A stretch of DNA of 64,000 nucleotides from Eledone cirrhosa. Its lineage: Eukaryota. Below the pieces are notes generated by a model. It made no database searches, was not told the origin of the DNA, and was given only the letters and a program-made list of their open reading frames with translations. Of this stretch, positions 15,604 through 60,252 are shown in pieces. The number at the start of each line of letters is the position of its first letter. Position 1 is the stretch's first letter. The position numbers and the translations under genes are program-made. Location of the stretch: the NCBI GenBank assembly GCA_964016885.1, contig OZ024751.1:35774001-35838000 (forward strand), read 5' to 3'.

Positions 15604-15744
15604 AAACAAAGGGAGTGTGGTAAGGTACCAGGTGGACCATAACACACCAGCGTACTTAGCGTAGTTGAGTGGGTAAAAGGAAAAGAGAAAAGAGTTAGTT
15701 CGGATCTAGCTGTCGAAACGGCCTGAGCTCAGCCGCCGGGTCTT

Positions 15745-15747
<3 letters not shown>
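15604..15747 (-). mobile_element. Penelope-like pLTR family H1, copy A (degenerate)
   Basis: Tail 'gtggtaaggtaccaggtggaccataac' plus inverted 'gtcgaaacggcctgagctcagccg'. Flanked by TA repeats. Confidence 0.75.
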
Positions 15748-20899: not shown

Positions 20900-21080
20900 G
20901 AACAAAGGAATTATGGTAAGGAACCAGATGGACCATAACGCACCAGAGTACTCAATACTTAGGGTAGTAGAGTGGGAAATAGGAAAAAGTATGACCCCGA
21001 CGGCAGAGCTCAAGCCGTTCCGACGGGTTGAGCTCTGCCGAAACGGCTTGAGCTCTGCCGTCGGGGTCATACTTTTTCCT
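20900..21080 (-). mobile_element. Penelope-like pLTR family H1, copy B
   Basis: 80-bp tail, then perfect 39-bp inverted repeats at 20981-21019 and 21042-21080. Inserted in (TA)n. Confidence 0.85.
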
Positions 21081-21436: not shown

Positions 21437-21894
<458 letters not shown>

Positions 21895-27833: not shown

Positions 27834-28186
<353 letters not shown>

Positions 28187-29121: not shown

Positions 29122-29443
29122 TTAGATGCAAAATTTTTGGAATGTTTTACATATTTTTACTGTTCCATTAATGGACTGTACTTGTAATTTCGTAACTAGT
29201 TGTGTTCTTTCTATTCCTGTGAAGCCTAGCTTCTCAGTATTTGTATTGAAGCAGTTACTAACATACCCCAGTGCCCCAATAATCACGGGCTTAAATCTGA
29301 AGGTGTAATCAGGGTGGAGATTTCTCATCAGTTCTGCATAAATATTCTCCTTTTCGCTAATCTTTGATATTATATTGGCATCTGTTGGGCAGCTAATTTC
29401 CACTACTGTGCATGTTTTCTTCTCCCTGTCCCATATCATAATC
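29122..29443 (-). mobile_element. 3' end of an RLE-type non-LTR retrotransposon (restriction-like endonuclease domain)
   Basis: IMIWDREKKTCTVVEISCP...KENIYAEL...PVIIGALG...GTVKICKTF matches the PD-(D/E)xK RLE C-terminus pattern. Confidence 0.85.
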
Positions 29444-29804
29444 TCTCTCTCCTCCCCCTCTCCTCCCCCTCTCCCCACCCCCACCCCCCCTCTCTCTCTC
29501 TCTCTCTCTCTGTAGAAACAACTTTGTTTACATACCAACACAAAAGCAAGAATGAGGGGCTCATTCTACTGACATGGCTTTAAAAAGAGGCTATTTGCAT
29601 AATTGCAAACGAATCAAATATTATTAATATTCTAAAAACCAAAAGGAAGCTGCTGCTGCTGGTATTGAGTACAACTTCATTGAAACACCATAGTACATAT
29701 GTGAATGTATATTATCTGTTTATTCTCTTGATAGCATGTGCTCTATCTCTATAGTACATCTGCTCTATGGCGTCTGGATGGAATGGTCTACTCGACATAC
29801 ACAA

Positions 29805-34138: not shown

Positions 34139-34545
34139 ATTGTTTCTACTTTTGGCACAAGGCCAGCAATTACCCAGTACATTACTGGTATTTTATTTTA
34201 TCGACCCCGTAAGGATGAAAGGCAAAGTTGACCTCGGCGGGATTTGAACTCAGAATGGAAAGGGCCGTAACTCTATGCGTCAAAGCATGACGTCCGACCC
34301 TCTACCGATACTGCCAATCCACCAATAATAATGATTTCTAGAATAGGCACAAGGCCAGTAATTTGGGGGAAGGGGAAAGTCGATTAAATCGACCTCAGTG
34401 GATTACTGGTACTTTATTTTATCGACCCCGTAAGGATAAAAAACAAAGCTAACCTCGGCGGAATTTTAACTCAAGACGTAAAGGGCCATAACTTTATGCT
34501 GCAAAGCATGGTGTCAGATGCTCTACCGATACTGCCAATCCACCA
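34139..34545 (-). mobile_element. two adjacent family A SINEs
   Basis: Two successive copies of ggcacaaggccag...atcgaccccgtaaggat...ctgccaatccacc. Confidence 0.85.
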
Positions 34546-52457: not shown

Positions 52458-52460
<3 letters not shown>

Positions 52461-53075
52461 AACGAGTAGGACCCCGACGGCTAATTCTGGACTAAATGAA
52501 AATTTTTATCCTGGTATTTGAATAGCCGAGCTTCTCAAGGGGTAATTCATATATGGTCAAACTGATTGTCACAAGGATTGGTCAAAAGTTTGTTGTTGAG
52601 ACATAATAATTCTATGATGGCAATTTGTGGAGGGAAGGGGTAGCTAAACCTGCCAGTAGGAGAAAGAGGGAGAGGGGGTGGAGGAGACCCATTCATGCGT
52701 TGATAGTGCCGACTACAGCTGGGCATGAGGTCAAAGAAGATACTAGGGAGGGGGAGGGGGAGGGAGAGGAAGTAGAAACAATAAGTAGAACAATAAGGGG
52801 TAAATATATAGAAAAATACTGAGAGCGTTAAAAAGCAATTAAATGTAAAAAAAAAAATAAACAATTACTGGTTACTACGACCTAAGTCTCTCACTGGTAC
52901 TCGGCTATTCAAATACCAGGATAAAAATGTTCATTTAGTACAGAATTAGCCGTCGAAACGGCTTGAGCTCAGCCGTCGGGGTCCTACTCGTTCCTATTAC
53001 CCACTCTACTACCTTAAGTATTGAGTACTTTGGTGCGTTATGGTCCACCTGGTTCCTTACCACTTTTCCTCCGTT
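52458..53075 (+). mobile_element. Penelope-like pLTR family H1 (subfamily 2), copy E, longest
   Basis: Inverted arms ~52458-52530 and ~52901-52995 around a ~370-bp spacer, plus tail. Flanked by TA repeats. Confidence 0.85.
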
Positions 53076-54839: not shown

Positions 54840-55717
54840 TAATAATAATAATAATAAGAAGAAGAAGAGGAAGAAGAATCATGGAAATATGCGTTCAACA
54901 GGAATAGTCTGTTTACAAAATAGATGTCTTTTATAATTCAACATCTGGGCGTAAATAAGTGAGTGCTGACGAAGTGTAAGGACAGGGAAATACAACGTTG
55001 TTATTTAATAGAGTCCCAAGAGGCCACGTCTTCGGATAGAAACCCTTTCCCTCATCATGATCGAATTCAAAAAACTTATAAAGCTTCACCATTTTTCAGG
55101 TATAGCTAAATAAGATGTCCACACATTAGGCATCCACATAAACTGGAACTCCATAACGTTCCGAATGATTTAATTCTGTAATAAATCCTGACAGCTAAAA
55201 ACAAAGAAAAATCTTTAAAAAAAAAAAAAAAAATCCACCCGTGTTAAAGGAATTACTAGATGGTGTAGCCAAAAAACGCAATAGTGTAATAGTTTTTGAG
55301 GTATTGATTTCAAAGTATCGATACAGTGATTTATATTCACATTAGTAATACACCTCTCGTGCTATTTTGCATAATCTGTCACTTCAAATGAGGTTCTATC
55401 AAATTGATCGAATTAAATTAATTAACCAATATTCTTCATGGCATATTCCTCATTTCATTTTCAAATACAATCAGACTGTTCCACAAAAACTATTACAGTG
55501 GATTCAGACTGAAAATATGTATTGATTTCTTTCATAGTCAACATCATCATCACCATCACCACCATCACCATCACCATCATCATCATCACCATCACCATCA
55601 TAATCATCACCATCATCACCATCATCATCATCACTATCATCACCATCATCATCAGCATCAGCATCATCACCATCATCATCATCAGCAGCATGTTTCCGCC
55701 ACTAATGTAGCCACACA

Positions 55718-57847
55718 CTAGATGTGCCACTGGTACACCCAGTTGTTGGGGTGCCATACTAGATGTGCCACTGGTACACCCAGTTGTCGGGGTGCCATAC
55801 TAGATGTGCCACTGGTACAGCCAGTTGTTGGGGTGCCATACTAGATGTGCCACTGGTACAGCCAGTTGTCGGGGTGTCACACTAGATGTGCCACTGGTAC
55901 ACCCAGTTGTTGGGGTGCCATACTAGATGTGCCACTGGTACACCCAGTTGTCGGGGTTCCACACTAGATGTGCCACTGGTACAGCCAGTTGTTGGGGTGC
56001 CATACTAGATGTGCCACTGGTACAGCCAGTTGTCGGGGTGCCACACTAGATGTGCCACTGGTACAGCCAGTTGTCGGGGTGCCACACTAGATGTGCCACT
56101 GGTACAGCCAGTTGTCGGGGTGTCACACTAGATGTGCCACTGGTACAGCCAGTTGTCGGGGTGCCACACTAGATGTGCCACTGGTACAGCCAGTTGTCGG
56201 GGTGCCACACTAGATGTGCCACTGGTACAGCCAGTTGTCGGGGTACCACACTAGATGTGCCGCTGGTACAGCCAGTTGTCGGGGTGCCACACTAGATGTG
56301 CCACTGGTACAGCCAGTTCTTGGGGTGCCACACTAGATGTGCCACTGGTACAACCAGTTGTCGGGGTGCCACACTAGATGTGCCACTGGTACAGCCAGTT
56401 GTCGGGGTGCCACACTAGATGTGCCACTGGTACAGCCAGTTGTCGGGGTGTCACACTAGATGTGCCACTGGTACAGCTAGTTGTCGGGGTGTCACACTAG
56501 ATGTGCCACTGGTACAGCCAGTTGTCGGGGTGCCACACTAGATGTGCCACTGGTACAGCCAGTTGTCGGGGTGTCACACTAGATGTGCCACTGGTACAGC
56601 TAGTTGTCGGGGTGTCACACTAGATGTGCCACTGGTACAGCCAGTTGTTGGGGTGCCACACTAGATGTGCCACTGGTACAGCCAGTTATTGGGGTGCCAC
56701 TCTAGATGTGCCACTGGTACAGCCAGTTGTTGGGGTGCCACACTAGATGTGCCACTGGTACAGCCAGTTATTGGGGTGCCACACTAGATGTGCCACTGGT
56801 ACAGCCAGTTGTTGGGGTGCCACACTAGATGTGCCACTGGTACAGCCAGTTGTTGGGGTGCCACACTAGATGTGCCACTGGTACAGCCAGTTATTGGGGT
56901 GCCACTCTAGATGTGCCACTGGTACAGCCAGTTGTTGGGGTGCCACACTAGATGTGCCACTGGTACAGCCAGTTGTCGGGGTGCCACACTAGATGTGCCA
57001 CTGGTACAGCCAGTTATTGGGGTGCCACTCTAGATGTGCCACTGGTACAGCCAGTTGTTGGGGTGTCACACTAGATGTGCCACTGGTACACCCAGTTGTT
57101 GGGGTGCCATACTAGATGTGCCACTGGTACAGCCAGTTGTCGGGGTGCCACACTAGATGTGCCACTGGTACAGCCAGTTGTCGGGGTACCACACTAGATG
57201 TGCCGCTGGTACAGCCAGTTGTCGGGGTGCCACACTAGATGTGCCACTGGTACAGCCAGTTGTCGGGGTACCACACTAGATGTGCCACTGGTACAGCCAG
57301 TTCTTGGGGTGCCACACTAGATGTGCCACTGGTACAGCCAGTTGTCGGGGTGCCACACTAGATGTGCCACTGGTACAGCCAGTTGTCGGGGTGTCACACT
57401 AGATGTGCCACTGGTACAGCTAGTTGTCGGGGTGTCACACTAGATGTGCCACTGGTACACCCAGTTGTTGGGGTGTCACACTAGATGTGCCACTGGTACA
57501 GCCAGTTGTCGGGGTGCCACACTAGATGTGCCACTGGTACAGCCAGTTGTCGGGGTGCCACACTAGATGTGCCACTGGTACAGCCAGTTGTCGGGGTGCC
57601 ACACTAGATGTGCCACTGGTACAGCCAGTTGTTGGGTGTCACACTAGATGTGCCACTGGTACAGCCAGTTGTCGGGGTGCCATACTAGATGTGCCACTGG
57701 TACAGCTAGTTGTCGGGGTGTCACACTAGATGTGCCACTGGTACAGCCAGTTATTGGGGTGCCACTCTAGATGTGCCACTGGTACAGCCAGTTGTTGGGG
57801 TGCCACTCTAGATGTGCCACTGGTACAGCCAGTTGTTGGGGTACCAC
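55718..57847. repeat. 41-bp GC-rich tandem satellite, ~52 copies
   Basis: Unit ctagatgtgccactggtacagccagttgtcggggtgccaca. Successive starts at 55718 and 55759. Confidence 0.97.
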
Positions 57848-59614: not shown

Positions 59615-59864
59615 ATGTCGTACCACACATAATAAGTGCTGATAAGACGAATATACTCCTTGACCCCAGGACCGCCTCCCAACCCAGGTCTGAACACAAC
59701 AGATTTCTCCCAGAGCAGTATAGAGAGTAAGAGTGAGAAAGTAAGAAAGAGATATTGAGTAAGAATCGACTCCAGTACTAGACTGGTACTTTATTTATCG
59801 ACCTCGAAAGAGTGGAAGGCGAAGATTGACCTCGTCAAGATTTGAACAATAATTATATATATAT

Positions 59865-60209
59865 AACAAAGGAATTGTGGTAAGGAACCTGATGGACCAT
59901 AACGCACCAGGGTACTCAATACTTAGGGTAGTAGAGTGGGAAATAGGAAAAAGTATGACCCCGACGGCAGATCTCAAGCCATTTCGACGGCTATTTCTGG
60001 ACTAAATTAGAATTTTTAGCCTGGTGAATATATAGCCGAACTTTTAAAGGGGGTACTTCCTTATATGGGAAGATTGTAGTTGTCAAATCTTCCCATATAA
60101 GGAAGTACCCCCTTGAAAAGTTCGGCTATTTATTCACCAGGCTAAACATTCTAATTTAGTCCAGAAATAGCGTCGAAACGGCTTGAGCTCTGCCGTCGGG
60201 GTCATACTT

Positions 60210-60213
<4 letters not shown>
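59865..60213 (-). mobile_element. Penelope-like pLTR family H1, copy F (~130-bp-arm palindrome plus tail)
   Basis: Arms ~59945-60075 and ~60086-60213. Tail 59865-59944. Confidence 0.88.
60107..60202 (+). ncRNA. type I hammerhead ribozyme, U3-A8 core variant
   Basis: cccc TTGAAAA g-ttcggctattt..ggctaaa..tttagtcc..aaatagcgt-c GAAA cggc-ttgagctct-gccg TC gggg. Predicted GUC cleavage after 60197. Confidence 0.7.

Positions 60214-60252
<39 letters not shown>

Follow-up and report, generated by a model that had tools for sequence, protein, structure and literature searches.

The genome of Eledone cirrhosa (3.0 Gb) contains a family of motifs that are probably homologs of pLTR type I hammerheads, belong to a Hydra-clade Penelope-like retroelement and cut part of its RNA after GUC in the cell, mostly in one subfamily. 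The U3-A8 core of the motif is in itself known and ordinary. The new features are a drifting 3-8 pair, a long stem II and, above all, insertion junctions at the predicted cut site that are subfamily-specific. If these junctions are run-offs of cDNA at the cut site, they would provide evidence of in vivo cleavage from DNA alone, and a dozen subfamilies would represent a natural series whose predicted activity ranges from high to low and which includes forms that spread with mismatched 3-8 cores. At stake is the question of intracellular cutting by the hammerheads of animal Penelope-like elements and its purpose.

The window, i.e., the whole stretch of DNA that was analysed, is 64 kb in length. 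All six related TA-flanked elements listed in the initial annotation, starting at positions 15604, 20900, 21494, 27995, 52458 and 59865, are present in it, and a covariance model of the family matches 11 arms within them with rough E-values from 1e-33 to 4e-6. A complete set of hammerhead parts on one arm was found only in insertion F (59865-60214). The features of the six insertions are as follows:

15604..15747, decayed mini-insertion of an older subfamily, tail and 3' half only
20900..21079, inverted mini-insertion, 3' halves only
21494..21776, inverted mini-insertion, both arms ending inside the 3' arm of stem II
27995..28185, inverted mini-insertion, both arms ending inside the 3' arm of stem II
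52458..53074, insertion E; its minus arm has TTGAGAA at 52532-52538 and lacks GAAA and stem III
within 52458..53074, plus strand, the other arm of insertion E, 3' half and long tail without the 5' core
59865..60214, insertion F, two inverted 5'-truncated arms of the element 3' end between (TA)n runs; the long-tail arm is on the minus strand and the short-tail arm on the plus strand
59865..59962, minus strand, long tail of insertion F, about 97 nt past the cut site
59943..60071, minus strand, second, decayed hammerhead arm of insertion F, core TTTAAAA at 60042-60048
60107..60112, plus strand, 5' strand of stem I of insertion F, ACCCCC
60113..60119, plus strand, 5' half of the core of insertion F, U3 U4 G5 A6 A7 A8 A9 = TTGAAAA
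60120, plus strand, G10.1 of insertion F
60120..60174, plus strand, stem II, 55 nt, consisting of G10.1-C11.1, a 2x1 loop, a 9-bp outer helix, an internal loop and a weak inner helix
60175..60178, plus strand, 3' half of the core of insertion F, G12 A13 A14 A15.1 = GAAA
60179..60195, plus strand, stem III, CGGC/GCCG around TTGAGCTCT; the loop is palindromic, includes GAGCTC and is predicted to pair between two copies
60196..60198, plus strand, U16.1, C17 (TC at 60196-60197) and G1.1; predicted cut between 60197 and 60198
60198..60214, plus strand, 3' strand of stem I (GGGGT, 60198-60202) and short tail ending 17 nt past the cut site, at (TA)n

The core cccc-TTGAAAA with GAAA, stem III and the GUC site, described earlier for insertion F, is read on its plus arm at 60107-60202. 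Stem II has the reported length of 55 nt; however, one C is missing from its 3' strand (TAGCG instead of TAGCCG), and the inner of its two helices is weak. The C-run of stem I has five residues in the focal subfamily and four in the other subfamilies, and core position 7 is free to differ from one subfamily to another. In the minus arm of insertion F, G5 is replaced by U (TTTAAAA), with further changes in stem III and loop III; the long tail continues into the leader of the open reading frame (ORF) in tandem copies. The TTGAGAA reported on the minus strand of insertion E was located at 52532-52538, but this arm is an incomplete hammerhead, because GAAA and stem III were deleted between two AGCCGTC repeats. 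The copy at 15604 has GCC in place of GTC at the cut triplet. The four elements other than E and F lack the 5' half of the core.

The heptamer AGCCGTC occurs twice in E-type copies, ahead of GAAA and ahead of the cut site (60165-60197 of the window, and sister copies). The duplication may permit a competing hairpin hiding GAAA, according to folding models, and explains deletions such as that in the minus arm of insertion E. A search of Rfam with the focal region and a better-preserved copy revealed no hammerhead match at E-values up to 10; the long stem II and A8 depart from the Rfam hammerhead models.

The unit of the element is about 3.1 kb in length and, in longer copies such as locus L150, consists of a hammerhead, a leader, an ORF encoding RT and GIY-YIG domains, a 3' UTR and a second hammerhead. 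The ORF at L153:1673-3802 (minus strand) is a natural 710-aa frame, in which YRDD and VIY...YIG can be recognized by eye, along with RWR, DKT, CNCPDRSIC (CxCX5C), CNLC (CxxC) and CKH (CxH). The Hydra clade is defined by an RWK-like motif, DKT, a CxCX5C linker, and CxxC and CxH around conserved E and N (PMC8557442, available text). (TA)n targets, tandem and inverted truncated copies and an optional tail are all seen in the Eledone family. Judging by the protein motifs and the (TA)n target, the element is assigned to the Hydra clade; a Neptune label was considered and dropped against the definition given in the available text of PMC8557442. Searches of Pfam and PDB sequences with the element ORF gave no match.

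Two relatives from metagenome contigs, with an RT identity of 39-41%, carry CUGAAGA or CUGAUGA hammerheads at the equivalent position. These hammerheads (L170:19-75 and both ends of L171) are canonical and small, with a palindromic GATC loop III. The covariance model of the family found no match to the hammerheads of these two distant relatives. From its position and parts, the Eledone motif is identified as a putative pLTR type I hammerhead homolog that occupies the same place as the canonical hammerheads of related elements.

Genome-wide, 46,467 + 4,592 (about 51,000) exact 3' halves and 4,901 + 342 (about 5,200) flanked 5' halves were counted. Since the 3' halves far outnumber the 5' halves, approximately nine in ten arms lack the 5' core. 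The flanked-core pattern has 4,901 matches, compared with 7 for the reversed pattern, which excludes chance. Among the 4,901 copies, 2,878 have a U3-A8 core (UUGANAA) and 1,537 a mismatched C3·A8 core (CUGANAA). A base other than A at position 8 was found in 77 copies, about ten of which are C3-G8; the latter look like sporadic, scattered mutants. With A8 in at least 4,415 of the 4,901 copies, CUGANGA-based searches do miss the family, as was foreseen. An 8-nt core pattern, with an extra base between positions 9 and 10.1, was found in only five copies. The suggestion that U3-A8 is fixed is not supported, given the 1,537 C3·A8 copies and a small U3·G8 subfamily: the 3-8 pair is of the Watson-Crick type in the focal copy and is not in the large C3·A8 clade.

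Trees were built without the core from 78 of 123 rows and 131 of 184 rows, rows lacking enough upstream homology being excluded, and were midpoint-rooted without an outgroup. On these trees, the older subfamilies are U3-A8, with a U3·G8 subgroup. A C3-G7-A8 clade of 47 rows (support 99/97) is nested among the U3 subfamilies, spans several supported nodes and then reverts to U3. Given this order of the older U3-A8 rows and the nested C3 clade, U3-A8 is likely to be ancestral within the family, though not strictly kept. The C3·A8 subfamilies kept amplifying despite the mismatch. An origin of U3-A8 from a canonical core with an extra A, through loss of position 7, was considered and rejected, the older subfamilies already being UUGAUAA or UUGAAAA, C3 being nested and the 8-nt core pattern occurring in only the five copies mentioned.

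The fold was analysed in the 45 copies closest to the subfamily majority, 42 of which are distinct. When the distinct copies are laid on the hammerhead model, 89% of the cells pair, compared with 25-51% in slid controls. Two-sided changes were noted in the outer helix of stem II, where G-C is replaced by A-U in 8 of 42 rows, U-A by G-C in 7 of 42 and U-A by A-U in three; its covariation score was reached by 0 of 500 shuffles, a test that overstates significance because the rows are related. The changes in stem II amount to a few events on one deep branch. Covariation, proposed in the initial annotation as a check of the stems, is thus present in outer stem II and absent from stems I and III, which are conserved in the 42 distinct copies, while the inner helix is weak and has one two-sided change only. 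When the majorities of 13 subfamilies are compared, variation is seen in 1 of 12 non-paired core columns and in 37 of 60 columns of the flank and inner stem II (Fisher p=0.0009). The sole variable core column is a tie produced by two arms of one insertion, and it is invariant in a 20-copy majority. U4, G5, A6, A9, G12, A13, A14, A15.1-U16.1, C17 and G10.1-C11.1 are conserved across the subfamily majorities and present in the plus arm of insertion F. The hammerhead anatomy proposed earlier is therefore borne out by the homologous site in the relatives, the conserved core and the covariation of outer stem II, but not by Rfam.

In no subfamily is the hammerhead fold predicted to be more than a minor conformer (share of at most 0.08), and the RNAalifold consensus is an alternative fold from which stem II is absent. 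Fragment 60095-60215, previously suggested as an assay substrate, is a poor choice: the focal copy is decayed, with a predicted hammerhead share of 0.0008 for its arm compared with 0.044 in an intact sister copy, and its subfamily has a low cut-site footprint. A contact of 5 bp between stems I and II (-7.2 kcal/mol) is predicted only for the TCTTACTGG subfamily, without covariation support; no such pairing is predicted for the focal subfamily. The self-duplex of stem III has a predicted energy of -27 to -31 kcal/mol in three young subfamilies, versus about -7 per hairpin, and is predicted to be weaker in the one old copy examined. Dimeric Penelope hammerheads are reportedly the subject of a 2017 paper in RNA Biology. 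In two runs, sequencing depth drops over the stem II region, an observation given no weight since depth on contigs is an unreliable measure. No RNA run was listed among the sequencing runs with the element, an absence that speaks neither for nor against its transcription.

Indirect evidence of cleavage comes from TA-flanked mini-insertions, in which an inverted arm ending in CCCC is followed by zero to several untemplated bases and a forward arm starting from GGGG. Both cDNAs in such insertions end at C17|G1.1, and 44 distinct insertions of this kind were found among the matches listed. One general pattern gave 409 short inverted junctions genome-wide. All 20 fetched junctions are separate TA-flanked insertions with differing flanks and inserts. 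About four in ten cut-site junctions read CCCC-GGGG directly, with a one-base ambiguity.

The number of short junctions per intact long-tail arm differs strongly between subfamilies. It is 166/1762, or 9.4 per 100, in the UUGAGAA (U3-A8) subfamily tagged TCTTACTGG, and approximately 100/2295, or about 4.4 per 100, in the UUGAUAA subfamily, as estimated from 25 cases among the 100 junctions listed of the 409. In the TCCTACTCG group, whose core has C3 in 70 and U3 in 30 of the best 100 of 968 copies, the ratio is 80/6780; it is 20/1339 in the C3·A8 groups and 31/2846 in the focal U3-A8 subfamily. These three low groups have 1.1-1.5 junctions per 100 arms, with p<1e-20 for each contrast with the TCTTACTGG subfamily. 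Inspection by eye placed 90 of 100 listed TCTTACTGG junctions, about 60 of 80 in TCCTACTCG, 11 of 20 in the C3·A8 groups and 18 of 31 in the focal subfamily within one base of the site. The cut-site junctions per 100 arms are accordingly about 8.5, 0.9, 0.8 and 0.6, respectively, whereas junctions two or more bases past the site number 0.3-0.9 per 100 in all four groups. The G-run is identical in all groups, and about 35 nt upstream of it are identical in the high and low E-type subfamilies. Since the G-run and the adjacent template are the same, yet the cut-site junctions differ, the RNA would already have been cut before reverse transcription, and the cut-site junctions are likely a genomic footprint of in vivo cleavage.

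The 3-8 pair alone does not set this footprint: in spite of its U3-A8 pair, the focal subfamily ranks no higher than the C3·A8 groups. The possible pairing of stems I and II is the only feature found to be special to the top subfamily; this predicted contact leaves the UUGAUAA subfamily unexplained, which reaches about 4.4 per 100 without a strong predicted pseudoknot. Differences between subfamilies in RT proteins or promoters could mimic the contrast.

The ends and breaks of the arms also bear on the interpretation. Beyond the predicted cut site, the 3' ends of the arms lie at (TA)n, 17 nt away in 23 of 55 arms and 97 nt away in 18 of 55. Of 90 tail-anchored arms sampled without bias, 51 end in the internal loop and the inner helix on the 3' side of stem II, at a distance of 35-46 nt upstream from the cut site, and long- and short-tail arms behave alike; about 5-7 of the 90 break at the cut site itself after removal of three artefacts. 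When arms are anchored in the 3' half, 50 of 60 break 3-34 nt upstream of the GUCGAAA motif. The main cluster at -35 to -46 could mark a transcription start or a protein-bound block. Of the 15 arms fused directly to TA, for which 27 positions were allowed, 5-6 are fused at the cut site. Among 70 arms running into the ORF, the tail anchor is absent from 10; 31 reach beyond -46, 13 end between -31 and -45, and 1-3 start at the cut site.

Alternatively, the motif might be a hammerhead descendant that has lost its cutting activity and persists only as a protein-binding or RT-guiding fold; the G1.1 junctions would then be places where RT halts, either after copying the G-run or on meeting the three-way junction. 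We consider this unlikely, although several observations agree with it: the frequent breaks at -35 to -46 show that RT-related stops are common nearby; the amplification of C3·A8 subfamilies to 1,537 copies spans several supported nodes of the trees; there is a U3·G8 subfamily; the low groups, too, show a slight excess of junctions at the site (11/20 and 18/31); and hammerhead mutants still insert in vitro (PMC11167929, available text). However, with the same G-run and about 35 nt upstream, the cut-site junctions differ roughly ten-fold, whereas those a little beyond the site show no such difference; the stop falls on the exact bond predicted by the hammerhead anatomy; and U4, G5, A6, A9, G12, A13, A14, U16.1 and C17 remain conserved across subfamilies. 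The same break cluster, if it were a start site, would make RNA 5' ends possible inside the motif, and promoters can differ among subfamilies. G1.1 could then be a transcription start or a cut by a protein nuclease, mainly in the youngest E-type subfamilies and without ribozyme chemistry; this is improbable, as it requires a coincidence with the predicted scissile bond, and just 1-3 of the 70 ORF-reaching arms begin there. It is very hard to credit that all subfamilies cleave usefully, the C3 forms by a register shift to CUGA-GA (no position 7, one additional A ahead of G10.1) that restores C-G, and that the footprint differences reflect timing or repair. In favour of this, position 7 is G in 93 of the best 100 of the 1,537 C3 copies, whereas each of the four bases occurs there among U3 copies, and metazoan Penelope-like hammerheads typically have one additional base between 9 and 10.1 (PMC4209133, available text). 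Against it, the C3 groups show a low footprint, and as the C3 clade forms one nested lineage, common descent could account for the association of C3 with G7.

If the motif does cut in the cell, as we propose, the insertions could arise as follows. The element protein would nick (TA)n on both strands, and reverse transcription would start at two internal sites, for which anole Poseidon offers an in vitro parallel. On cleaved RNA, both cDNAs would terminate by run-off at the 5' end, G1.1, acquire untemplated bases and join head to head, giving a tiny palindrome. Cleavage is presumably slow and dispensable for spread, so that the 3-8 pair may have been free to drift among U-A, U·G and C·A, with the three-way fold retained, probably also as a protein-binding RNA site. 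More speculatively, the TCTTACTGG subfamily gained CUGGU in the bulge of stem I; pairing of this stretch with ACCAG of stem II could make the active fold more stable. A further-reaching reading, which we put forward only tentatively, is that the junctions form a quantitative in vivo record of the ribozyme: over a long period, the lineage would have multiplied while its hammerhead was weak or broken (U3·G8 and later C3·A8); it would then have regained U3-A8, after which the pseudoknot raised cleavage about ten-fold. In that case, such a count would reveal the hammerhead activity of any Penelope-like family from nothing more than a genome assembly.

The comparisons with known systems refer to the available text of the cited papers. 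U3-A8 cores were already published for natural hammerheads in 2011 (PMC3088659) and 2014 (PMC4209133). They had initially been called rare in nature; within Penelope-like elements they are neither rare nor new, as about 1,300 U3-A8 motifs were reported in the Cercyon element of Schistosoma mansoni, also Penelope-like (Cervera and De la Pena 2014, PMC4209133). The natural U3-A8 hammerheads of Perreault et al. 2011 (PMC3088659) share with the Eledone family a covaried 3-8 pair; they have pseudoknots as tertiary contacts, which are a prediction for the TCTTACTGG subfamily only in Eledone. They are not retroelement subfamilies, and amplified C3·A8 or U3·G8 forms are not described in the available text. 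As a point against cleavage by the Eledone motif, pairwise mutagenesis of one hammerhead showed that only a G-C swap rescued the 3-8 pair (PMC9901934). A literature search for G8A with C3U, or for C3-G8 with a mismatch, found nothing.

The minimal hammerheads of metazoan Penelope-like elements (PMC4209133) resemble the Eledone family in type I topology, pLTR location, U3-A8, a short stem I, a palindromic stem/loop III and G10.1-C11.1. In contrast to them, the Eledone family lacks the extra base between A9 and G10.1, has a stem III of 5 bp and a far longer stem II, and has amplified mismatched 3-8 forms. Thus, of the traits of minimal hammerheads, the missing or tiny stem III and the extra base at 9/10.1 are not seen in the family, and the palindromic loop III, predicted to permit a dimer, is.

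Hydra-clade elements (Craig et al. 2021, PMC8557442) share with the Eledone element the clade motifs, the (TA)n target and a hammerhead at the 3' end of the unit, and they likewise have inverted, 5'-truncated copies and two tail lengths. The Hydra hammerheads in File S2 of that paper are all CUGANGA, with a stem II of about 3-7 bp and a loop III of 1-3 nt, whereas the Eledone family combines A8 with a stem II of 55 nt and a palindromic loop III of 9 nt. The Hydra-1_oBim hammerhead of the same file is also unlike the Eledone family.

Poseidon PAc of Anolis carolinensis (Frangieh et al. 2024, PMC11167929) shares an AT-rich target and both-strand extension. Two internal RT start sites define its tail, similarly to the 17- and 97-nt ends in the Eledone family, and its hammerhead lies upstream of the RT start, with cleavage dispensable for insertion, to which we liken the Eledone arrangement. 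Unlike the Eledone family, PAc has the canonical C3-G8 core, and its single mutants at position 3 or 8 abolish cleavage and retain insertion. According to the available text, no RNA-seq reads start or end at the PAc cut site, whereas in Eledone genomic junctions lie on it. In vivo cleavage evidence was stated to be absent for Penelope-like hammerheads in 2014 (PMC4209133), and their function was called unclear in 2021 (PMC8557442). A precedent by analogy for ribozyme cuts visible in genomic junctions is R2, in which the cut site of the HDV-like ribozyme is likewise mirrored in genomic 5' junctions (Eickbush et al. 2013, PMC3774820, available text). However, both the ribozyme class and the element are different, and the R2 cut sets the full-length 5' end, in contrast to the rare mini-palindromes of the Eledone family. 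Our literature search revealed no report of cut-site junctions for Penelope-like hammerheads and none combining octopus, Penelope and hammerhead; subscription papers and supplements may differ in this respect.

Several further observations can be noted. Locus L431 (G000:C3:214145800-214148600) is a head-to-tail array of at least five units of about 274 bp, each containing the 3' half of the hammerhead, the tail and the start of the ORF without the 5' core; it is a retrozyme-like satellite unable to form the ribozyme. At three loci (L028, L043 and L048), a different Penelope-like ORF with an LPSDKG motif lies just past the TA run at the element end, perhaps owing to a shared (TA)n target. In runs X4, X6 and X7, whose contigs carry the labels of three other organisms, parts of the element have C or G at position 7, and one low-depth contig of X4 is compatible with the C3 form. 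Within the window, positions 55714-57847 are a minisatellite with 52 copies of a 41-bp unit (95% matches), and a 147-aa open frame is located at 29125-29565 on the minus strand, which we take to resemble the C-terminus of a non-LTR retrotransposon protein. Fragments of a further abundant interspersed repeat, with the motif ACTGGTACTTTATTTATCGACC, are found at 59770-59850 and 34180-34310 of the window and in several of the fetched loci.
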